Below, piece by piece: positions 1-8,386 of a stretch of DNA of 8,386 nt. The DNA is from a virus (taxonomy: Monodnaviria; Loebvirae; Hofneiviricota; Faserviricetes; Tubulavirales; Inoviridae). The stretch lies in the IMG/VR virus record IMGVR_UViG_2703718850_000001; one strand, given 5' to 3'. The position numbers and the translations under genes were made by a program. The notes below the pieces were generated by a model that did not search any database, had not been told where the DNA came from, and was given only the letters and a program-made list of their open reading frames with translations. How positions within the stretch are numbered: the stretch's first letter is position 1; each line of letters begins with the position of its first letter.

Positions 1-771
1 ATGTGGAGTGCTATTGCTGGCGCTGCTGGCGCTATTGGTTCTGCTCTTCTTGGTGCTCATTCAGCAAAGGCTTCTGCTGACCGTGCCAATAAGATTACGA
101 TGGATTTGGCCAAAAATGGTATCCAGTATCGTGTGCAGGATTTACGGAAAGCTGGCCTCAATCCCATTCTGGCCGTTACAGGTTCCGGTGGTCTTGGTTC
201 CGTCAGTTCGTCAGGTATTCAGGCTGCCCAGCCTGCTGATTTTTCTGGTGCCGTCAGTTCTGCCGTTGCTGCATTTGATGCCTTAACGAAGCGTCAACAG
301 CAACAGGTTGCTAAGGAAGGTATTGAGTCACAGATTGCTTTGCAGCGTAACCAGATTGCGAATAGTGCGGCTGATGTACGTCTTAAGGATGCACAGGCTG
401 CTGCCGCTCTCCAGAACGTTGAGAACATGAAAACACAGTCTAATCTGACCAATCAGCAGATTTTGACCGAGGCAAGTCGGAGAGCTAATATCGAAGCACA
501 GACAGGCCTTAGCTCTGCACAGCGGATTAGAACTCAATATCAGACTGTTCAGGACAAGGTTCTGGCTGATTATTTGAATACACCTGTTGGAGCTGAAAGT
601 GCACGTGTCAATATGGATGCTTCTTCTGGCGGTCTTATCGGCGGGCTTAATACTTGGCTTAGTTCTTATAAGCGTGACCATGAGGCTAATTCGGCGAAGA
701 AAGTAAACAAGGGGGGACGCTTCCCCCCTTCACAGTTCCAGCAGCAGTTGATTAACAATTATCGGAGGTAA
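1..771 (+). CDS. Microviridae-like DNA pilot / minor spike protein (H/VP2-like)
   Basis: 256-aa ORF starting with ATG at window base 1. Gly/Ala-rich N-terminus MWSAIAGAAGAIGSALLG resembles the remembered phiX174 H N-terminus (MFGAIAGG...), followed by a Gln-rich, coiled-coil-like middle. Immediately followed by a J-like basic peptide gene. Call by recalled resemblance, no search run. Confidence 0.5.
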   Translation: MWSAIAGAAGAIGSALLGAHSAKASADRANKITMDLAKNGIQYRVQDLRKAGLNPILAVTGSGGLGSVSSSGIQAAQPADFSGAVSSAVAAFDALTKRQQQQVAKEGIESQIALQRNQIANSAADVRLKDAQAAAALQNVENMKTQSNLTNQQILTEASRRANIEAQTGLSSAQRIRTQYQTVQDKVLADYLNTPVGAESARVNMDASSGGLIGGLNTWLSSYKRDHEANSAKKVNKGGRFPPSQFQQQLINNYRR

Positions 772-773
772 TT

Positions 774-893
774 ATGGCTCGTTCCCGTAGACGTATGTCT
801 AAGCGTTCTTCCCGCCGTTCGTTCCGCAAGTATGCGAAGTCGCATAAGAAGAACTTTAAAGCCCGCTCAATGCGTGGCGGTATCCGTTTATAA
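774..893 (+). CDS. Small Arg/Lys-rich DNA-binding/packaging peptide (phiX174 J / gokushovirus VP8-like)
   Basis: 39 codons ATG..TAA, MARSRRRMSKRSSRRSFRKYAKSHKKNFKARSMRGGIRL; 18 of 39 residues are R/K. GGAGG at 764-768 lies 5 nt before the ATG. Too short for the ORF track. Position right after a pilot-like gene fits a microvirus structural module. Confidence 0.5.
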   Translation: MARSRRRMSKRSSRRSFRKYAKSHKKNFKARSMRGGIRL

Positions 894-909
894 TCGCAAA
901 TCTGGCACC

Positions 910-938
910 TTTTGACATAACTTTACATTATGCGCACC
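910..938. other. dif-like XerC/XerD recombination site (candidate IMEX attachment junction)
   Basis: Minus strand reads GGTGCGCATAA-TGTAAAG-TTATGTCAAAA. Against the E. coli dif consensus GGTGCGCATAA-TGTATA-TTATGTTAAAT the XerC arm is 11/11, the XerD arm 9/11 and the central region is 7 bp rather than 6. It sits in the non-coding gap between the microvirus-like genes and the inovirus-side genes. Confidence 0.55.
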
Positions 939-976
939 AATGGTAAGGATGGCGGGAACTGGCGTTACCGGTGCCG

Positions 977-1210
977 TCATTGGTCACAGACCGTAATCCA
1001 CTGGCCCAGGACGTCTTTCAGGCAATGTTGGCATAAATCCAGTTTTAAGCGATTACTGTCACCAAAAATTGAACCGTATCCAGCTAAGTGATTAACAGAC
1101 AGAAACTCATTGAACTCAATGTCATCTACCACCGTCTTCGCATGGCGACCACAGCGATCGCAGGTCTTCGCACATAACATTACAGTATCGCTGGATGTGA
1201 AAAATTGCAT
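977..1210 (-). CDS. Hypothetical 77-aa protein with CxxC...CxxC (putative zinc ribbon)
   Basis: ATG at 1210 with GGAG 6 nt upstream (minus strand), TGA stop at 977-979. Two Cys pairs, CDRC and CQHC, about 40 residues apart. No homologue recognised. Lies between phage gene IV and the dif-like site. Confidence 0.5.
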   Translation of the reverse strand: MQFFTSSDTVMLCAKTCDRCGRHAKTVVDDIEFNEFLSVNHLAGYGSIFGDSNRLKLDLCQHCLKDVLGQWITVCDQ

Positions 1211-1327
1211 TTTATCTCCTCGTAATGCTGCCGCGCCGAATCAGCAATAACGCTAAAAAAACAGAATTGTTCGGCTTGGCCAACCCCTGACACTAACAAA
1301 AGCAAGTTTTGTCACTGTCCGGAGTTA

Positions 1328-1636
1328 TCATATAAACCAATAGACCGTCCTTACGCCATTCTGGTTATCAATAACATAGCCGCATTGTTTCCTTAAAAAT
1401 TCTTCTGCTAAATCAATGGCTTTTACAGAAATCTCATAAGAAGGAAGTAAAGTGTATCCTTTCCCTTCACTGGCAGCTGCTTTGATCGCATCCAGAGTAT
1501 TATCAATCAGTAACAGAGCAAGTGATGCTTCATTTACCTGAGCCGAAGAACTTCTGGCTGCAAGTGTCATTGTTTTTGCTTCTTCCGCTGTAATCGTTCG
1601 TTCTGCCAGAGCAGATAAAATCCCATAAGAATCCAT
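1328..1636 (-). CDS. Hypothetical 102-aa protein (unknown function)
   Basis: ATG at 1636 with a weak GGGG Shine-Dalgarno upstream, TGA stop at 1328-1330. Same strand as the phage genes, directly downstream of gene IV. No homologue recognised. Confidence 0.45.
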   Translation of the reverse strand: MDSYGILSALAERTITAEEAKTMTLAARSSSAQVNEASLALLLIDNTLDAIKAAASEGKGYTLLPSYEISVKAIDLAEEFLRKQCGYVIDNQNGVRTVYWFI

Positions 1637-1657
1637 TAGTTACCCCAATCAATAATG

Positions 1658-1715
1658 TCCATTTGATGGATAGCGAGCAGGGCTCACGCACCTACCCGCT
1701 ATCCATCAAAGTGGA
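1658..1715 (-). other. Long imperfect hairpin overlapping the gene IV stop codon (possible terminator or packaging-signal-like element)
   Basis: 14-bp perfect stem TTTGATGGATAGCG (1662-1675) pairs with CGCTATCCATCAAA (1697-1710), extended to about 18 bp with one bulge; 21-nt loop. Only a weakly T-rich tail follows on the minus strand. Confidence 0.3.
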
Positions 1716-2971
1716 CGAATGATATGTGCTGTAAGCAAAATATACATAATACGCTGTTCATTGCTGTCTGCCTTGCTACTGAAAATCCAGCCTATAAGAG
1801 GAATTTTACTTATAACTGGAACTGAACGCTCGGCATTGCTGAACGATGAATCGATAAGCCCCCCCAATAACAACGTCTGACCATCCTTAATCTGGACTGT
1901 CGTCTGAATCTGGCGCTGATTAGTAATAATATCGGATGCCTGATCATCATTGCTGATTGAATCAGCGCGAGTGTCGATAGTCAGAACTAGTTGCCCGTTA
2001 CCCATGACAACAGGCGTTACCTTGAGAGAAACGCCAACATCATGACGCTCGATAGTCTGAAACGGATTATTTACCCCGGCAGATTCGCCCGTTACCTTTC
2101 CGGTGATAAACGGCACATTCTTACCTACGGAAATGTAACCAGTCTGACCAGACTGAGTAAGAATACGCGGCGTTGAAATCACCTTAGAGCGTGAATTACT
2201 CTGGACAGCACGCAGAGACAGCGCCAACACGTTACCATCAAAAATACCAAAAGAACCGCCCGCCGTAGAAAGAGCGCTACCCAGTGCAGAAGTATTAAAG
2301 CCCCCCGCAACCTTATGACCGGATGCAGAACCTGCCGCAAACGATAAATCAACGCCATCAGACAAGCTGGTTTCAAACATCAGCGACTGAATGAGAACCT
2401 GATCGCGGGCAACATCCACAGAATTGATAAAATCGGACAGAACCGGCAGCAGCTCGTCAGGCGCAGAAACAATCAGCGAGTTATTGCCTGGATAATCCAC
2501 GACATTACCACCACCATTAGAATCAAGATAAATTTTAATCAGTTGCTGAACATCGGACGATCTAACTTTTGTCAGCTTAAAATTTCTGACCGTAAGCGCC
2601 ACAGGTACTGGCTGGTAAGATGGCTCAGAAGGAAAAGTATCATAAGACTGGTTATCAGAATCATCGGAATCCGAAACCATCTGTGAAGGTAATTTAGACG
2701 GCAAAGAGACTACCGCAGGATTGCCAGAAAGCATGACAAAACCGTTAGCATTCAGAACAGACTTAAAGAAATCATCAATATTTGCTGGATTAACATCAGC
2801 ATTAAATACGGTTACGTTTCCTTTAATATCAGGATTAACAATAACAGGCTTGCCAGTTTTTGAAGAATACCACTGAACAAATGAGCGAACAGATGAATTA
2901 TTTAAATTAACAGTTTCAGCAGAAACGCAGAATGAATAGGCAAATAAAAAAGCAACAATAACAGAGCGCAT
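1706..2971 (-). CDS. IV: Filamentous phage pIV secretin (outer-membrane export channel)
   Basis: 421 aa from ATG 2971-2969 (AGGAG 9 nt upstream), signal-peptide-like MRSVIVAFLFAYSFCVSA. Long runs match remembered M13 pIV (e.g. GKNVPFITGKVTGESAGVNNPFQTIER, QTLLLGGL, SKIPLIGW). The ORF-track extension to 3064 is an upstream alternative-start artefact overlapping gene I. Confidence 0.9.
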   Translation of the reverse strand: MRSVIVAFLFAYSFCVSAETVNLNNSSVRSFVQWYSSKTGKPVIVNPDIKGNVTVFNADVNPANIDDFFKSVLNANGFVMLSGNPAVVSLPSKLPSQMVSDSDDSDNQSYDTFPSEPSYQPVPVALTVRNFKLTKVRSSDVQQLIKIYLDSNGGGNVVDYPGNNSLIVSAPDELLPVLSDFINSVDVARDQVLIQSLMFETSLSDGVDLSFAAGSASGHKVAGGFNTSALGSALSTAGGSFGIFDGNVLALSLRAVQSNSRSKVISTPRILTQSGQTGYISVGKNVPFITGKVTGESAGVNNPFQTIERHDVGVSLKVTPVVMGNGQLVLTIDTRADSISNDDQASDIITNQRQIQTTVQIKDGQTLLLGGLIDSSFSNAERSVPVISKIPLIGWIFSSKADSNEQRIMYILLTAHIIRPL

Positions 2972-2978
2972 AATAATA

Positions 2979-3353
2979 TTACTCCTGACAGGTAACAGTC
3001 TGTAAATAACGGCCTTTTCTAATAACAACACGACAGGCATCTTTAATATCAACGGAATAACCATCTTTAATCAAATCAAAATACTGATATTTCATACCTT
3101 TTGCATCAACAAACGTAACGGAAACGTCAAAGCCAAGTTGTGAAAAAGAATTAATAGAAAGTCGGGGTAAGTCACTGGACGAATCAGGCGTTACCGCCCT
3201 CGCCTGTTCAGCATAAGCAGATTTAATAGCTGAGATTTCATCAACATTCTTTCCAGACTGGAGCCAGAAACCAAACGCAAGCCCCAGCGCCAAAAAAGAA
3301 AGCATTAATATAAGACGGTTCGATTTGCGAAAATAAATTTTAGTGAGGCGCAT
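2979..3353 (-). CDS. XI: Putative pXI (in-frame internal start within gene I)
   Basis: In-frame ATG at 3353-3351 is Met241 of pI, the same position as M13 pXI, with GAGGA upstream; the downstream hydrophobic segment matches the pI membrane anchor. Inferred by analogy with Ff only. Confidence 0.4.
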   Translation of the reverse strand: MRLTKIYFRKSNRLILMLSFLALGLAFGFWLQSGKNVDEISAIKSAYAEQARAVTPDSSSDLPRLSINSFSQLGFDVSVTFVDAKGMKYQYFDLIKDGYSVDIKDACRVVIRKGRYLQTVTCQE

Positions 3354-4073
3354 ATAATAATTAAATCCTCTGTGAACAGAAAATTGACCGTGCGTGATAA
3401 ATGGTGGCAAAAGCGAAAATGCGCCATGAGGATAATTATCTGTGAACGCTTGTTTGGTATTGTAAGCAGAATAAAGAGATTTTCCTGTATATATCCATTT
3501 ATCAACAGTGATTGAATTAACATTATCACCATATTTGACAATGCCAAAGTGTACCTTTGGTAAAGAAAATCTCGCCCCTGAAACCAAATTCATAATGGAG
3601 CCAACAAAAGGAATGTTTAATTTATCTGAACGGCGACAATAAACAACATGCTCAGCAAGCGCCAGACGAGCTTGCTTATCCATTATCGAAATATCCTGAA
3701 TCAAAAATATAATATCCCAGCCTAATTTTCTGGCATGTAAAAACCAGTCAATAACAGATTGTCTGTCTTTATCACCCCATGAGCGGGAATTAAACCAAGT
3801 ACCACATTCATCAAGTACAAGGAGGCCATTACGGGATTCATCGTAAGATGTATTCCCAATACCAATAGCAAGTAAATCATTTAATGAAGGCTTGTCAGGA
3901 ATGCGAATAACGCGCGTTTTTTTCGCATAACGCCCAACCATAGGCATATTATGCAATTTAAGATCAAGATTAGTGGCAACAGGACAACCCTTAGCAAGTC
4001 TTTCCTGTATTCTGGAAACACTAACAAGTGTCTTGCCTGAGCCTAATTTGCCTGTTACTACATAAACCGCCAT
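2979..4073 (-). CDS. I: Filamentous phage pI assembly ATPase (Zot-like)
   Basis: 364 aa; N-terminus MAVYVVTGKLGSGKTLVSV (Walker A) and much of the sequence closely match remembered M13 pI (MAVYFVTGKLGSGKTLVSV...LLVLDECGTWFN...HARKLGWDIIFL...). Start ATG 4073-4071 abuts the gene VI stop (TAAATG). Confidence 0.92.
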   Translation of the reverse strand: MAVYVVTGKLGSGKTLVSVSRIQERLAKGCPVATNLDLKLHNMPMVGRYAKKTRVIRIPDKPSLNDLLAIGIGNTSYDESRNGLLVLDECGTWFNSRSWGDKDRQSVIDWFLHARKLGWDIIFLIQDISIMDKQARLALAEHVVYCRRSDKLNIPFVGSIMNLVSGARFSLPKVHFGIVKYGDNVNSITVDKWIYTGKSLYSAYNTKQAFTDNYPHGAFSLLPPFITHGQFSVHRGFNYYMRLTKIYFRKSNRLILMLSFLALGLAFGFWLQSGKNVDEISAIKSAYAEQARAVTPDSSSDLPRLSINSFSQLGFDVSVTFVDAKGMKYQYFDLIKDGYSVDIKDACRVVIRKGRYLQTVTCQE

Positions 4074-4415
4074 TTAAATCACCCTGTTTGCATAATCAAG
4101 AAATTTTTGTTTTAAATCGAAAACAAAAACACTGATACGAGTAACCATAATAACGTTAACACACGCCTGAAAATGGTCAGGCAATACAGACGCCATTAAA
4201 TGGGAGAAATCAGCAGGTAAACCGTTATACATGACCTCAGCAAGGTACTGCATTAAAAGCGTAACAGTTGTTGTAATTAATGCGACCAATGCAAAGGCGA
4301 TTAATCCTGTTCTGGTAGCAAGTCGAGCTAAAAAACTCGCCACATAGCCAATAAACAAAGGGACAAGACCAATAAGAAAACGCAACAATGCAGGAATACC
4401 TAATAATAAAGGCAT
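4074..4415 (-). CDS. VI: Filamentous phage pVI minor coat protein
   Basis: 113 aa from ATG 4415-4413, [14 protein letters not shown] versus M13 pVI MPVLLGIPLLLRF; hydrophobic throughout. AAGGAGGT Shine-Dalgarno upstream. The gene III C-terminal frame stop overlaps this start as TGATG. Confidence 0.8.
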   Translation of the reverse strand: MPLLLGIPALLRFLIGLVPLFIGYVASFLARLATRTGLIAFALVALITTTVTLLMQYLAEVMYNGLPADFSHLMASVLPDHFQACVNVIMVTRISVFVFDLKQKFLDYANRVI

Positions 4416-4833
4416 CACTCACCTCCTTTGCGAAGCAATGAAGTTAAAGAAGTAAAGACATACCAGAACGTAAGGCAATAAAAAACCCATGAAAGAACAT
4501 CTTTAATAGTCAGTAATTTATCGCAACCAATATCAATCTGATAAACCTCTCCGGGAAAAATAATAAAATCAGAGCAGCCGTTACCATTGGGTAAATTAGG
4601 CAGCATAGCACCTTTATTTAAAAATGCTTCCCATAAAGCACCGTGAGAATCCTTTTCAATTCCCAATTCAGAATCAGCCAAAGTAGAAGCGCCATCTAAT
4701 TCAGAGTCGCCCTTTCCATAACGAGAATCACCACCTGAAGGGTCAGCAAAACGGCCAGCCCCCCGCGTAAGATTGTTAATGGAATCGTCAAGACGATTTA
4801 TATTATTCCTGGTTTGTTCATCGGCATTTTTTT
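4415..4833 (-). CDS. III: Gene III g3p C-terminal domain in the -1 frame (frameshifted continuation; pseudogene or slippage product)
   Basis: This frame is open from the A7 tract (plus 4827-4833) to TGA at 4417-4415. It encodes ...[51 protein letters not shown]..., resembling the M13 g3p C-terminal anchor (...ECRPFVFGAGKPYEFSIDCDKINLFRGVFAFLLYVATFMYVFSTF). It has no start of its own; the track's 4681 start is TTG. Confidence 0.7.
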
Positions 4834-5649
4834 ATCATCTGATGAAGTGTCTTTCTCCGTTAATTTATCATGAATATCGCTGGCTATTTTGGGTGAAGCA
4901 CCTTCGATCGCAGACTGAATATCACCTTTAGAAAGACTGGAACCACTAGAGCCACCGCCAGAACTACCGCCACCGGACTCACCACCGCCAGACTCACCAC
5001 CGCCGGACTCACCACCGCCAGACTCACCACCACCATTTTGGGGGGGTGAGGGTTTATCAGAGGGGTCAGCTACAGCACCTGTAGGCTTCCATGTTGCAGC
5101 GCAAACAGTACCATCACCCTGACAAACAATGACACCAGTAGCCTCATATTCACAGCCGTTATAGTAGATATAGCGACCACCATCATATGAATCAACATTA
5201 TTAAACACACCTTCTTCTGGCGGCTTCGCTTCACAAATTTCTTCTGGTGTCGGGTCAGTAGGTTTTTCATCAGGAACAGAACGCTGAATATTACCAACAA
5301 TATAAGCCGTTAAAGACCAATATTTATCCTTCTGCCCTGGTGAATCGCTGTAAGTACAATCACCAGTAAAAACAAGACGGAATTCAGAATCAGGCCAGAT
5401 ACCCTCATAAGTTGGTTTAACCCGAGTAAATACACTCTGAGCACTGGATTTAGCACCCTGACAAGCGGAGGCCTGCATAGCAGCATCAATATAGTAAACC
5501 GTTGTCTTAGAGCCATCCTGATTGGTTATTTGCTTACTTTCAGCGTAGGCAGAACTTTGATAAGTGGATTTAGTAATGCTTTCCCATGACTCAGCATGTG
5601 AAAAAGGAGAAATGAGGACAGCGGAAAGAATTAATATTTTCCTTTTCAT
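4798..5649 (-). CDS. III: Gene III adsorption protein g3p, N-terminal part (signal peptide, receptor domains, Gly-rich linker); reading frame ends early
   Basis: ATG at 5649-5647 gives [19 protein letters not shown] (signal peptide). A TolA-binding-N1-like segment [29 protein letters not shown] resembles M13 DRYANYEGCLWNATGVVVCTGDETQCYGTW, then a (GGGES)n linker. The frame stops at 4800-4798, 11 codons after an A7 run. The ORF-track extension to 5793 overlaps gene VIII in another frame and is not used. Confidence 0.75.
4951..5034 (-). repeat. Tandem 15-bp coding repeats (about 5 units) encoding the g3p [10 protein letters not shown] linker
   Basis: Plus strand shows repeating units of the form accaccgccagactc / accaccgccggactc; minus strand translation [30 protein letters not shown]. 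Confidence 0.8.
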
Positions 5650-5656
5650 AGTAACC

Positions 5657-5690
5657 CGCTTTAATAAAGGGGCAACGAGTGCCCCTGAGT
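5657..5690 (-). terminator. Rho-independent terminator between gene VIII and gene III
   Basis: On the minus strand, a GC-rich 7-bp stem AGGGGCA/TGCCCCT (5668-5674 pairs with 5680-5686) with a 5-nt loop is followed by TTTATTAAAG, directly after the gene VIII stop. Ff phages have a strong terminator at this position. Confidence 0.6.
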
Positions 5691-5695
5691 GAAAT

Positions 5696-5938
5696 TCAAA
5701 CCGCTTTTGAAGAGAATTTTTTGAAAATACGAATGGCAAGCCCAGCGCCAACCACAGCCACAACAACAGGCCATACTTTACCAATGAGATCATTTGCCTG
5801 AGTCAACAAAGCATCCATTGCCTGACCTGCATAATCAGTACCACCTGTAGCGCCTTCAGCCGCAAAAGAACTTGCAGAAATAAAAAGCGCAGTTGAAGCC
5901 AGAGCAACTTTATATTTAACAGTAGACAGAATTTTCAT
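5696..5938 (-). CDS. VIII: Filamentous phage major coat protein pVIII (IKe-like)
   Basis: 80-aa precursor: signal peptide ending SFA, then mature [54 protein letters not shown]. Acidic N-terminus, hydrophobic core and basic tail [12 protein letters not shown] closely match the remembered IKe coat protein (...[25 protein letters not shown]). ATG at 5938 with GGAG upstream. Confidence 0.92.
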
Positions 5939-5957
5939 AGGAATAACTCCATTAAGG

Positions 5958-6053
5958 TTACATTAATCGGTCAGAAAATGATTTAAATGAACCGACCGCA
6001 TAGAAAAGGGCAAAACCAAAGGTATAAGCCCCGAAGAAATAAACGATATACAT
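5958..6053 (-). CDS. IX: Putative pIX minor coat protein
   Basis: 31 aa, MYIVYFFGAYTFGFALFYAVGSFKSFSDRLM; small and hydrophobic, with C-terminal SDRLM resembling the M13 pIX TRLME region. ATG 6053-6051 overlaps the gene VII stop (TAATG). Too short for the ORF track. Confidence 0.6.
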   Translation of the reverse strand: MYIVYFFGAYTFGFALFYAVGSFKSFSDRLM

Positions 6054-6139
6054 TAACGAAAGACCCCCGCAGTAATCGCGCCGAGGCCAAAAGAAATAAC
6101 GATGCCAGACGCTATCAAAATTTGAATAACATCGTCCAT
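6053..6139 (-). CDS. VII: Putative pVII minor coat protein
   Basis: 28 aa, MDDVIQILIASGIVISFGLGAITAGVFR, resembling M13 pVII (...VVLCFALGIIAGGQR). ATG at 6139-6137 lies 2 nt after the gene V stop; TAA at 6055-6053. Confidence 0.6.
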   Translation of the reverse strand: MDDVIQILIASGIVISFGLGAITAGVFR

Positions 6140-6141
6140 AT

Positions 6142-6459
6142 TTAACCTTTGATCTCTGCGATGCCACCATCGGAAGAAACATTATAAGTTACACCTTCCC
6201 TACCCTCCATTGACCACGCACGGACATAGACAGGAATTTGAACTAATTTCCCAATGAAAGCATTCGCCTGGTTCATTAGACCTGCGTTAACGAGAGCCTG
6301 AGAAACTCGAATAATAATTTGATCCTGCTTTGTACCACCAAAACCATCAGGTATTTCAAGGCCAATACCAATTTCATTATAATAGCCCTGACCATTAACT
6401 TTATTACGTTGGCGGGCTCCCAACATTTTACCCTTAACGAAAAGACCATAATTAGACAT
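6142..6459 (-). CDS. Gene V-position protein (putative ssDNA-binding protein, assigned by synteny)
   Basis: 105 aa, ATG at 6459 with AAGGAAAG upstream, between gene II and gene VII exactly where Ff gene V sits. I do not recognise similarity to M13 or IKe gVp, so the function is inferred from position only. Confidence 0.45.
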   Translation of the reverse strand: MSNYGLFVKGKMLGARQRNKVNGQGYYNEIGIGLEIPDGFGGTKQDQIIIRVSQALVNAGLMNQANAFIGKLVQIPVYVRAWSMEGREGVTYNVSSDGGIAEIKG

Positions 6460-6470
6460 ATTACTTTCCT

Positions 6471-6785
6471 TTAATGCCAGCTACTGGCGTGCGAAATACG
6501 GTTGTAATCGAAAATAAAACCTTTCTCATAAATCCATAAGGGGATTTCCGCTGGCTTGGCTTCCAGCGTTCTTATTAGCGGAACAACGTTATTAGAGTCT
6601 GGTGAATCACAATAGAAATTAATATCGATACCGAACGAAAGCAATTCTCTTCTATGGCGATAAAAAGTGTTATGAGGTAACATTTCTTTCATGTTAGCCC
6701 CTTGTTTCCAAAGTAAATAAGTTGACTGTATTTTTCTTGGCAGTTTCGTTATTTTTTCATCACTTAAAATAGCATTCTGATTCAT
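6471..6785 (-). CDS. X: Putative pX (in-frame internal start within gene II)
   Basis: In-frame ATG at 6785-6783 with GGGAG 8 nt upstream; product MNQNAILSDEK... (104 aa) aligns with the start of M13 pX (MNIYDDSAVLDA...). Inferred by analogy with Ff. Confidence 0.4.
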   Translation of the reverse strand: MNQNAILSDEKITKLPRKIQSTYLLWKQGANMKEMLPHNTFYRHRRELLSFGIDINFYCDSPDSNNVVPLIRTLEAKPAEIPLWIYEKGFIFDYNRISHASSWH

Positions 6786-7565
6786 TTCTATTCTCCCTAC
6801 ATATTCAGAGAATAATTGACGTGGTGTTTTCATATTCCAGTTAGCGCCAAGCGTTAAATTTAAATCAATAAGCTCAGTTGTTCTTAATGTTAATTCAATA
6901 CGTAATTTATCTTTCGTCCAGTCCAGTAACCCGGCTCGTACAAACTCTTCGGCTATCTGGTGCCCTTTTTTACCAGAAACGTGTTCATCATATTTTGAAT
7001 AAAATTTCAGACTCCATCGACGGGAGTTTTTACCTAAATAAACTGTACCGCCTTTCCCACATGCGCGACCATGGCGTGTTTTAGCTTTAAATTCGGCGGC
7101 ATAAAGCCATGATCTGACATTTTCCAGCGTAGATAATGAATACATGTAATTAATGTCAACACGTGAAATTTTATACTGACCTGCCATAACGGCTTTATAA
7201 GACGCTAAATCATGAGGAATATTCAATAAGGATAAAATCCTGGCATAGACCGTCAACATGAGCCCTTGTATATCATCCGACCCAACAACAGAATGCCCCT
7301 GCAGAAACTTGGAAGGATTACCATCAATGTACAAATGTGTCGCTTTACCTTCGCCATTAGATCCTATCGATCGTACTTTCATCGTTGCTTCATGCGAGCC
7401 GCGAACAGTCAGTCGCTTAACGGTTTCCCACTCAATTGCACCGTCAGCATCAACGCTGACAACACTCCCCGCCGGAAGCGGTTTGTGTGTGCAAGGGAAA
7501 ATCCCGGTAAGCCAATCGATCACGAATAAATCCTCAAAATTGCAAAAATGACGACTTACTAACAC
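6471..7565 (-). CDS. II: Rolling-circle replication initiator pII (gene II); start uncertain
   Basis: Matches remembered M13 pII at NPSKFLQGHSVVG (M13 PAKVLQGHNVFG) and SNNVVPLIR (M13 CNNVVPLVR). The track start at 7565 is GTG; a better-supported start is GTG 7520-7518, preceded by GAGGA, giving about 349 aa. Shorter than M13 pII (410 aa). Confidence 0.85.
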   Translation of the reverse strand: MLVSRHFCNFEDLFVIDWLTGIFPCTHKPLPAGSVVSVDADGAIEWETVKRLTVRGSHEATMKVRSIGSNGEGKATHLYIDGNPSKFLQGHSVVGSDDIQGLMLTVYARILSLLNIPHDLASYKAVMAGQYKISRVDINYMYSLSTLENVRSWLYAAEFKAKTRHGRACGKGGTVYLGKNSRRWSLKFYSKYDEHVSGKKGHQIAEEFVRAGLLDWTKDKLRIELTLRTTELIDLNLTLGANWNMKTPRQLFSEYVGRIEMNQNAILSDEKITKLPRKIQSTYLLWKQGANMKEMLPHNTFYRHRRELLSFGIDINFYCDSPDSNNVVPLIRTLEAKPAEIPLWIYEKGFIFDYNRISHASSWH

Positions 7566-7692
7566 ATGAGTTCAGTAGTTCATTAGTGTTTTAACATTAC
7601 ACCAGTGAGCTAGTGAGTTCAAGAGGCTTGGATGATATGAGTTCATGAGCATGTATACTCACTTCAAATATTGCATTGAACGAGCGTAAAAA
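7566..7692. promoter_or_regulatory. Divergent intergenic control region with repeated TGAGTTCA motifs (candidate operator or origin repeats and promoters)
   Basis: ATGAGTTCA at 7566-7574 and 7637-7645, GTGAGTTCA at 7613-7621, plus partial copies (TAGTTCA 7576-7582, AGTGAGC 7604-7610). Candidate minus-strand promoter for gene II: TTGAAC (plus 7617-7622), 17-bp spacer, TAATGT (plus 7594-7599). Candidate plus-strand -10 TATACT at 7654-7659 for the regulator gene. Confidence 0.4.
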
Positions 7693-7875
7693 ATGGCAAA
7701 GCGCACGACTTATAACGTGACGGAAGAAAGAAAAATGAAACTAGAACGACTGGCTATAAATGCCAGTGTAAAACTAGGAAAAACAATTACATGGACAGAG
7801 ATTTTAGGTTATCTGATTGATAACTACTCTAAAGATGCAGCAGAAGATCTCATGTCTGCCAAACAAAAGGATTAA
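7693..7875 (+). CDS. Ribbon-helix-helix (CopG/Arc-like) transcriptional regulator, candidate phage repressor
   Basis: 60 aa, MAKRTTYNVTEERKMKLERLAINASVKLGKTITWTEILGYLIDNYSKD. The pattern (basic N-terminal strand, then two helices) matches the remembered CopG fold (MKKRLTITLSESVLENLEKMAREMGLSKSAMISVALENYKK). Divergently transcribed from gene II, like rstR relative to rstA in CTXphi. Confidence 0.55.
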   Translation: MAKRTTYNVTEERKMKLERLAINASVKLGKTITWTEILGYLIDNYSKDAAEDLMSAKQKD

Positions 7876-7893
7876 GTACCACGAATGGTACAA

Positions 7894-7930
7894 ACGTGCA
7901 GTATTACCAACACTGCACGTTCTTTATTGT
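7894..7930 (+). terminator. Rho-independent terminator downstream of the RHH gene
   Basis: 9-bp stem ACGTGCAGT (7894-7902) pairs with ACTGCACGT (7912-7920), 9-nt loop, followed by TCTTTATTGTG. Confidence 0.5.
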
Positions 7931-7963
7931 GCGAATTTTGAACAGTGAAAAAGGATCAAAAGG

Positions 7964-8386
7964 ATGAGTAGAAATAACGAAACAAGCGGCGTTGAACTGG
8001 TTGTCGTCGGCGTATTTGCTTTCTGTCTGGCAGTTGTTGCCTGGCTAATGAAAACTTTCGATGTTGAATGGCAAACAGCACTGGAAACTGCGCCTGGCCT
8101 GGTAGTCTGGTTGCTTGCTGTCGGAGCGGGGATCTTTTTCGGGATCAAAATGGAAACAGGTCTTGTTCGCTGGGGTGCTCCACTGGCGATCGCCCTTCTG
8201 ATTCCGGTATTCAAACCAATTCTTAAGGAAGCTGCCGGAGTACGTGAAATGGGTGGGTTGGTTTTCGATGATATGGTTTCGTGGTACGGAACTGGCTGGG
8301 GAATGTCGTTGATGTTTTTCGGAATTCTTATCATTGGATACGGACTTCTTTATTGGTGGCACAGAAGAAACTCATATTACTGGTAA
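7964..8386 (+). CDS. Small integral membrane protein (about 4 predicted TM segments), unknown function
   Basis: 140 aa; ATG at 7964 preceded by AAAGG/AAGGA; hydrophobic stretches VVVGVFAFCLAVVAWLM, LVVWLLAVGAGIFFGI, APLAIALLIPVF, MSLMFFGILIIGYGLLYWW. Stop TAA is the last three bases of the window. Preferred over the overlapping minus-strand ORF 7924-8334, which is Pro/Thr/Ser-rich and low in complexity. Confidence 0.5.
   Translation: MSRNNETSGVELVVVGVFAFCLAVVAWLMKTFDVEWQTALETAPGLVVWLLAVGAGIFFGIKMETGLVRWGAPLAIALLIPVFKPILKEAAGVREMGGLVFDDMVSWYGTGWGMSLMFFGILIIGYGLLYWWHRRNSYYW

Follow-up and report, generated by a model that had tools for sequence, protein, structure and literature searches.

How do genes resembling those of an icosahedral microvirus come to stand directly beside a filamentous phage, with little more than a recombination site between them? 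The question is raised by a stretch of 8,386 nucleotides catalogued in IMG/VR as a virus of the Inoviridae (IMGVR_UViG_2703718850_000001), the whole of which is referred to here as the window. An original prediction, made from the letters of the window, held that its first open reading frame (ORF) and a short basic peptide are those of a microvirus, that a dif-like XerC/XerD site follows them, and that two single-stranded DNA (ssDNA) elements may have integrated side by side. As set out below, the window very probably holds the downstream end of an intact clade D enterogokushovirus prophage, whose own dif motif links it to a filamentous prophage resembling the UPΦ group; the two would constitute a two-element array at the dif site of Escherichia coli G301, in which both members rely on the host recombinases XerC and XerD.

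Results

Source of the window and layout of the array

The window corresponds, with zero mismatches over 8,386 bases, to positions 10001-18386 of a locus (L010) of E. coli G301 (GCA_001576205.1, contig LOPD01000013). Its first position is that of the VP2 start codon, and the remaining genes of the gokushovirus lie upstream on the G301 contig. Extending the contig leftwards, as the original prediction had proposed, recovered the capsid and replication genes and the second, canonical dif that it called for: upstream of VP2, L010 carries a replication initiator, VP5, a scaffold protein (PF09675), the major capsid protein (PF02305) and a canonical dif. In order, the contig consists of the ydeT/fim flank, canonical dif, the gokushovirus (a unit of 4,515 bp between its sites), the hybrid site, the inovirus (a unit of 8,559 bp), a dif-like site belonging to the inovirus, and hipA; the three Xer sites on L010 are thus arranged as they would be in the proposed array. 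Strains that lack one of the two elements could also be compared, and among these L007 carries the gokushovirus alone and NCTC9104 the inovirus alone, each with near-identical flanks. Since VP2 and VP8 are gokushoviral, since a prophage and a second dif are found upstream, and since single lysogens have near-identical flanks, the sequences support the suggestion that a complete gokushovirus and an inovirus lie side by side between Xer sites, at the dif of the E. coli chromosome terminus.

The gokushovirus prophage

VP2 (1-771, plus strand) is an intact minor capsid or DNA pilot protein of 256 aa. Glycine or alanine occupies 15 of its first 30 residues, in agreement with the H/VP2-like N-terminus that had been proposed for this ORF, and the protein matches PHROG families described as 'pilot protein for DNA ejection' (best E = 3.9e-17) and is 72% identical in amino acids to its counterpart in Escherichia phage EC6098 (E = 4e-114). 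Nucleotide searches of a phage collection returned Microvirus mar4 ('DNA pilot protein'; 84.7% identity to window 1-940) and EC6098 vp2 (80.6% over 477 bp), and the exact protein is present in 77 blocks of the assembly index, including many E. coli contigs. A Pfam search found no family for VP2, and none for the 39-aa peptide that follows it at E <= 0.01; a search of PDB sequences with VP2 matched nothing.

The peptide, VP8 (774-893, plus strand), is a putative DNA-binding protein of highly basic composition, with 11 arginine and 6 lysine residues (17 of 39), zero acidic residues and an isoelectric point of 12. It had been described as a peptide typical of the DNA-binding proteins of the Microviridae, and this stands insofar as it is a gokushoviral VP8: it matches phrog_10695 (39 positions, gokushovirus-type, function unknown; E = 7.6e-10), and in a BLASTP comparison with EC6098 VP8 only the C-terminal 21 residues align, of which 19 (90%) are identical. 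Homology to protein J was not brought out by the Pfam search. The resemblance of the pair to H and J of phiX174 is therefore one of analogy, in which a pilot protein with a Gly/Ala-rich N-terminus is followed by a tiny, very basic, DNA-condensing peptide; VP2 is linked to H through the PHROG pilot-protein families, while VP8 can be regarded as a functional analogue of J only. Both searches by which these proteins were to be checked, against profiles and by BLASTP, return VP2 and VP8 of gokushoviruses, which belong to the Microviridae.

VP8 is absent from the gene calls of L010 and was identified as an ORF (window 774-893, L010 10774-10893); the gene calls of sister loci, L007 among them, do include it, and Kirchberger and Ochman (eLife 2020, PMC7062461) name it last in their six-gene order. 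The genes that are called in L010 encode proteins of 287, 89, 170, 557 and 256 aa, with Pfam matches to REP_ORF2-G2P, Chlamy_scaf and Phage_F, and together with VP8 they give the order VP4-VP5-VP3-VP1-VP2-VP8 within 4.3-4.7 kb that is required of enterogokushovirus prophages. No recombinase gene lies between the upstream dif, ATTTAACATAATATACATTATGCGCACT, and the downstream site, TTTTGACATAACTTTACATTATGCGCACC, and a near-canonical dif upstream, a variable phage dif downstream and the want of an integrase are the further marks of such prophages. By VP2, by VP8 and by nucleotide identity the element is a relative of the type phage EC6098.

The window itself contains only the last two of these genes, and RefSeq labels VP2 a 'hypothetical protein', as might be expected if VP2 and VP8 were the remnant of a dead microvirus. 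We consider this highly improbable: the source contig carries the six genes in intact form, related prophages have been revived as infectious phages (PMC7062461), and the 4,515-bp unit is near-identical (99.2-99.98%) in nine other strains with differing chromosomal flanks, which points to recent mobility. A live prophage is the better description of the element.

The hybrid Xer junction

The two prophages meet at a hybrid Xer junction (910-938), recognized by pattern search and by comparison with sister loci, which closes the gokushovirus on its right and bounds the inovirus on its left. On the minus strand this junction is made up of the XerC arm GGTGCGCATAA (938-928), a central region of 7 nt, TGTAAAG (927-921), and the phage XerD arm TTATGTCAAAA (920-910). 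A dif-like 28-mer, GGTGCGCATAATGTAAAGTTATGTCAAA, occupies 911-938 of the same strand, and its first 11 bases reproduce the XerC arm found in E. coli dif. The pattern of XerC arm, spacer of 6-7 nt and XerD-arm core matched the window once and none of 200 shuffled sequences. The site had been placed sixteen bases beyond the basic peptide, and the distance from the VP8 stop codon is indeed 16 nt if the site is taken as 29 bp (910-938) and 17 nt if it is taken as 28 bp. Relative to canonical dif, the clade D XerD arm matches at 9 of 11 positions with a 7-nt spacer and at 4 of 11 with a 6-nt spacer. An identical site ends the same prophage in C5 and nine other loci, and is found also in the free circular genome of Microvirus mar4.

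The composition of the junctions is informative as to the point of recombination. In gokushovirus lysogens of five lineages, the left junction consists of the host XerD arm, the host spacer and an XerC arm ending in T, after which the phage DNA begins; in the same five lineages, the right junction consists of the phage XerD arm, the phage spacer and an XerC arm ending in C, the host base, after which the right-hand flank begins. Exceptions to this one-base marker are L026, which has T at both junctions, and L013 and L018, which carry a substitution one base inward (CATC). The right junction of G301 has the base C, followed by AATGGTAAGG, with which the inovirus begins where it adjoins canonical dif in inovirus-only strains, and for this reason we take window 910-938 to be a true hybrid junction of both prophages. 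As the outer base of the XerC arm moves with the flank and the spacer moves with the XerD arm, the sequences place the presumptive crossover at the border between XerC arm and spacer. The marker is compatible with strand exchange on the XerC side, by the mechanism described in PMC4246890, though the identity of the catalytic recombinase cannot be read from it; in elements of the VGJ type exchange is confined to that side and is completed by replication.

The gokushovirus possesses a single double-stranded, 29-bp, dif-like phage attachment site (attP) with a 7-nt centre, and no second, inverted site accompanies it. This is the pattern of the VGJ type, which is defined alongside the inverted sites of the CTX type in PMC4246890, and the ssDNA fold of the junction region is not significant (z = +0.3). 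When the clade D genome is reconstructed as a circle, its dif motif stands between the arms of a short inverted repeat, TGGCACCT ... AGGTGCCT (window 903-910, L010 6455-6462); Microvirus mar4 has a different inverted repeat, GGCGATTTT ... AAAAGTCGCC, at the same position, and in EC6098-type phages it is the XerC arm that pairs with downstream sequence, unlike the bracketing repeat of clade D.

The G301 assembly is a draft, and repeats linked to dif do upset assemblies, as can be seen in an N-riddled stretch of UM146 and in the phage dif entered as 'n/a' for five clade D strains; it may thus be asked whether two dif-linked contigs were fused artificially through their common XerC arm. The two contexts share only some 14-16 bp, far under the k-mer sizes used by assemblers, and the contig crosses both elements into unique flanks on either side, with all three sites having the expected hybrid composition. 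Furthermore, the assembly index gives the contig for 2 samples and for one further similar place, and Kirchberger and Ochman independently read the same site on the G301 contig. An artefact of this kind is, in our estimation, extremely improbable, and we treat the junction as genuine.

The UM146 stretch (L003 14414-14640, from the E. coli UM146 RefSeq record) is a separate matter. It follows the right junction of the inovirus, looks like a consensus of two sequences, and coincides with an annotation of hipA as damaged; it is probably an assembly artefact at a dif-linked repeat. The idea that window 939-1210 is derived from hipA stemmed solely from this N-riddled assembly and was dropped.

The filamentous prophage

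That an unrelated filamentous phage lies on the other side of the site was confirmed by Pfam matches to secretin, Zot, G3P, G5P and G2P families from position 939 onward. This prophage, which is UPΦ-like and related to IKe and I2-2, fills the window from 939 to 8386 on the minus strand and continues for 1,111 bp more to its own dif-like site (L010 19497). It is some 99% identical in nucleotide sequence to prophages that occupy dif in 174 of 5,426 complete E. coli genomes, where every alignment begins at window position 908-911 and where the location is always the terminus, between the fim/ydeT region and hipA; several of these genomes, including L004 and L005, hold the inovirus as a tandem pair. 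Known phages in the phage collection match it at the nucleotide level in gene IV only, at approximately 80% (IKe and the PEar phages).

The right end of the inovirus lies 1.0-1.1 kb past the window (L010 19403-19497), where two inverted dif-like sites flank a GC-rich hairpin. The sites are GGTTCGCACAA-TGACG-TTATGCTAAAG and, inverted, GGTGCGCATAA-TGTCAACGCG-TTATGTTGAAA, each arm matching at 9 of 11 positions, and the ssDNA fold of the region (-33.3 kcal/mol, z = -8.6) was equalled by none of 200 shuffled sequences. Two inverse dif-like sites that pair in the (+) ssDNA as a forked hairpin, its central region left unpaired, constitute the attP(+) architecture of CTXΦ, and hence the CTX type.

The genes of the prophage occur in the Ff/IKe-type core order II, V, VII, VIII, III, VI, I, IV, between two dif-like sites, as in the Lineavirus-like UPΦ group. 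On the minus strand, and beginning at the junction, there are two accessory ORFs, one of 77 aa (977-1210; phrog_5435, E = 4.5e-46) and one of 102 aa (1328-1636; phrog_4115, E = 2e-68), the latter hypothetical in RefSeq lysogens. The assembly index contains the exact 77-aa protein in 13,667 blocks, and in all 10 places shown it marks the end of a UPΦ-like prophage. These are followed by gene IV, a secretin of 421 aa (1706-2971, L010 11706-12971; Pfam Secretin, E = 6.6e-43, with N0 and Secretin_N), by gene I, the Zot-type assembly ATPase (2979-4073; Pfam Zot, E = 1.9e-40), and, in the position of gene VI, by a small DUF5455 membrane protein (4074-4415; PF17537, phrog_1944). Gene III, encoding the attachment protein g3p (4415-5649), is split, with the Pfam G3P pilus-binding domain and Phage_Coat_A on its N-terminal half. 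Beyond it are gene VIII, the major coat protein (5696-5938; PF19199, 'major coat protein' in RefSeq), gene V, the ssDNA-binding protein (6142-6459; Pfam Putative_G5P, E = 3.2e-51), and gene II, the rolling-circle replication initiator of 350 aa (6471-7523; Pfam Phage_CRI, E = 9.1e-70, and G2P_X_C, E = 2.5e-29). Two accessory ORFs of divergent orientation, entered on the plus strand (7693-8386), complete the window, the first of 60 aa (7693-7875) and the second of 140 aa (7964-8386), matching phrog_2503 and phrog_4174; both are present in every UPΦ-like lysogen inspected.

The g3p protein contains GGGES repeats, and when its gene is aligned with the unbroken copies in L003, L004 and L005 a 1-nt deletion is seen that shortens A8 to A7 (T7 on the plus strand, 4828-4834); the gene is absent from the L010 gene calls. 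The deletion may mean that the prophage is non-infectious, or it may be an error of draft sequencing.

Just past the window, at L010 18470-19399, the inovirus carries a cargo gene whose 309-aa product combines AbiJ_NTD4 and Abi_C domains and is assigned by annotation to the STM4504/CBY_0614 family. In other copies of the inovirus the same slot holds a Fic or a zinc-binding protein, so that a variable, defence-like position adjoins the attachment site.

Relatives and rarity of the pairing

Strain C5 and eight further loci carry the same gokushovirus, 99.2-99.98% identical, at the same place and with no inovirus. An adjacent inovirus is absent from all 7 complete E. coli genomes in which a gokushovirus occurs, and none of the 10 sampled contexts of the inoviral 77-aa ORF includes a gokushovirus. 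A 34-mer spanning the exact junction (gokushovirus spacer, XerC arm and inovirus flank) had 0 matches in species-representative genomes and 0 in JGI metagenome contigs, collections that sample E. coli strains poorly and so have little bearing on frequency. G301 is the only clear case of the pairing.

Four loci, L009, L011, L012 (10939-13700) and L025 (10166-12930), carry the same gokushovirus followed by a 2.8-kb element that encodes a 272-aa protein and a 450-aa SIR2_2 protein. The right end of this element keeps the inverted site and hairpin of the UPΦ type and has lost the XerC arm; from its sequence, it resembles the decayed derivative of an inovirus, carrying defence-like cargo. Five clade D strains (131/07, G51, VREC0441, VREC0439 and G303) are those whose phage dif is given as 'n/a' in Supplementary file 1 of Kirchberger and Ochman. 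In these, the contigs presumably end at the right edge of the prophage, as would arise from a repeated downstream element such as tandem inoviruses, and more arrays may be hidden there. L026 (1-5514) is peculiar in another respect, in that three long ORFs, of 845, 556 and 507 aa and all without a Pfam match, stand directly to the left of canonical dif, where the flanks are fim or LysR-type elsewhere.

Discussion

Integration model and order of arrival

The integration of EC6098 requires XerC/XerD and the phage dif motif, and its excision is continuous (PMC7062461). By extension, the gokushovirus of G301 would use its single double-stranded 29-bp site, with a 7-nt centre as in VGJΦ of Vibrio, and XerC/XerD would recombine this site with dif by a crossover at the border of the XerC arm and the central region. 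After such an event the left side would retain the host XerD arm and spacer, and thus a working dif, and on the right side the phage XerD arm and spacer would be joined to the XerC arm and whatever flank had formerly lain to the right of dif, which in G301 is the inovirus. The inverted pair of dif-like sites in the inovirus, folded as a forked ssDNA hairpin, would predict CTXΦ-type, irreversible integration.

With every integration in a Vibrio array a working dif is restored at one side, so that the position of an element is a record of its insertion chronology (bioRxiv 10.64898/2026.06.12.731946). The newest element adjoins the working dif, and in G301 it is the gokushovirus that does so; by this analogy we favour an order in which the inovirus probably came first and the gokushovirus was the last arrival. 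The reverse is also conceivable, namely that the gokushovirus integrated first and the ssDNA hairpin of the inovirus then used the downstream site borne by the gokushovirus as a secondary landing pad. The product predicted would be the one that is seen, and L007, which has no inovirus, has flanks of the G301 type (a single mismatch over 5,599 bp to the left and none over 1,274 bp to the right), and its gokushovirus departs from that of G301 at only 3 of 4,515 positions, in contrast to the inovirus of NCTC9104, which is approximately 0.7% different from the G301 copy. The hybrid site also retains TGT beside its XerC arm, the bases said to decide compatibility with CTX-type elements (PMC4246890). 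Nevertheless, a canonical dif, which is the usual target, was available; the 7-nt spacer and imperfect XerD arm would be expected to make a poorer substrate; Vibrio arrays place the newest element beside the working dif (bioRxiv 10.64898/2026.06.12.731946); and the flanks of the inovirus-only strain NCTC9104 are equally identical to those of G301. We therefore regard arrival of the gokushovirus first as rather unlikely, and continue with the inovirus as the earlier resident.

Several considerations weigh against the account given here, or against parts of it. G301 is a short-read draft assembly, and the copy number of the inovirus and the g3p frameshift are taken from that draft alone. The UPΦ assignment is indirect and derives from the published description, the sequence of UPΦ901 being outside the collections searched. 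Experimental dependence on Xer has been established only for EC6098, and for the clade D site with its 7-nt spacer and for UPΦ it is deduced from sequence. Last, the order of integration is not legible in the sequence: the XerC arms of inovirus and host are identical, so that both orders yield the same product, and the gokushovirus-only L007 and the inovirus-only NCTC9104 both have flanks 99.98-100% identical to those of G301.

As regards mobility, recombination between dif and the hybrid site could release the gokushovirus by itself, so that a lysogen of the inovirus only is restored. The excised circle would join VP8 to VP4 across a reconstituted TTTTGACATAACTTTACATTATGCGCACT, and the scar would read as canonical dif followed by AATGGTAAGG. 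The inovirus would not be carried along, because it lies outside the interval from dif to the hybrid site; given this position, its frameshifted attachment gene and its apparently single copy, it is probably locked in. With a working dif retained, the resolution of chromosome dimers should proceed as before. A more speculative proposition is that the dif motifs of gokushoviruses act as extra landing pads or recombination partners, and that arrays are reshuffled by XerC/XerD into microvirus-inovirus cointegrates. We think this improbable; were it true, the filamentous capsid, which has no strict size limit, could package the cointegrate as it does VGJΦ-CTXΦ hybrids, and one ssDNA phage family would be mobilising another.

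Significance and prior description

The original prediction knew of no description of this exact pairing, and that part may stand, as the literature searches found no mention of Microviridae paired with Inoviridae; the prophage, its dif motif, the UPΦ group and Xer arrays are all published. Supplementary file 1 of Kirchberger and Ochman (PMC7062461) lists G301 (bovine mastitis, UK; LOPD01000013) as leaf 52, clade D, with the phage dif GGTGCGCATAATGTAAAGTTATGTCAAA, and since both the prophage and its dif motif (window 911-938) appear there, the core finding was already catalogued. The components and the mechanism being known, only the side-by-side pairing seems to be unreported, which is a modest addition; it reveals neither a new mechanism nor a new element. 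Its value is that of a clean, natural E. coli case in which two unrelated ssDNA phage families share the chromosome dimer resolution site, in which the three junction sequences are fully readable and a one-base marker locates the crossover, and in which the partners appear to differ in their mode of integration, the one by a VGJ-like double-stranded site and the other by a CTX-like ssDNA hairpin. A practical corollary is that surveys of enterogokushoviruses should record what follows the phage dif motif.

Comparison with known systems

With the EC6098-type enterogokushovirus prophages (PMC7062461) the gokushovirus of G301 has in common the six-gene order, a length of 4.5 kb, the lack of an integrase, and a setting between the fim/ydeT region and hipA in which it is preceded by canonical dif and followed by a variable phage dif. 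It differs in that its downstream motif abuts a phage rather than the chromosome, a circumstance not mentioned in the main text of PMC7062461, and in that EC6098-type motifs have the 6-nt spacer of the host, whereas the clade D motif reads better as 29 bp with a 7-nt spacer.

The inovirus fits the UPΦ group (UPΦ901; Shapiro and Putonti, Virus Evol 2020, PMC7307601) by its match to the published description, and it is by description only that it is set beside UPΦ901. UPΦ prophages are integrated at dif, often in tandem, with a core order like that of IKe and I2-2, GGGES repeats in g3p and accessory ORFs adjoining dif; their unit is of approximately 7.6 kb plus variable cargo, and they are widespread in E. 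coli and other Enterobacterales. The G301 copy is distinguished by its length of 8,559 bp, its AbiJ-like cargo, its frameshifted gene III, an apparently single copy, and its position behind a microvirus. The UPΦ paper nowhere mentions a microvirus, and the term 'attP' has zero occurrences in its main text. An identification of the inovirus with CUS-1/YpfΦ was dropped, because the same paper separates these phages from UPΦ and because the G301 phage has a secretin and IKe-like genes.

The closest parallel to the array as a whole is found at dif1 of Vibrio cholerae, where heterologous arrays of Xer elements are textbook examples, among them TLCΦ-CTXΦ-RS1 and the VGJΦ-CTXΦ array of strain MAK757 (PMC4246890; bioRxiv 10.64898/2026.06.12.731946). 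There, as would be the case in G301, unrelated elements without integrases enter one dif in succession, each integration leaves a working dif to one side and, to the other, a hybrid site derived from the element, and a reversible element of the double-stranded DNA type stands beside an irreversible one of the ssDNA-hairpin type. In contrast to VGJΦ-CTXΦ, the CTX-type partner in G301 is outside the interval of the reversible partner, and co-excision and hybrid packaging are not expected. Furthermore, the host is E. coli, and one of the partners, an icosahedral microvirus, is neither a filamentous phage nor a satellite, by which multi-element Xer arrays would be extended beyond Vibrio and beyond the filamentous phages.

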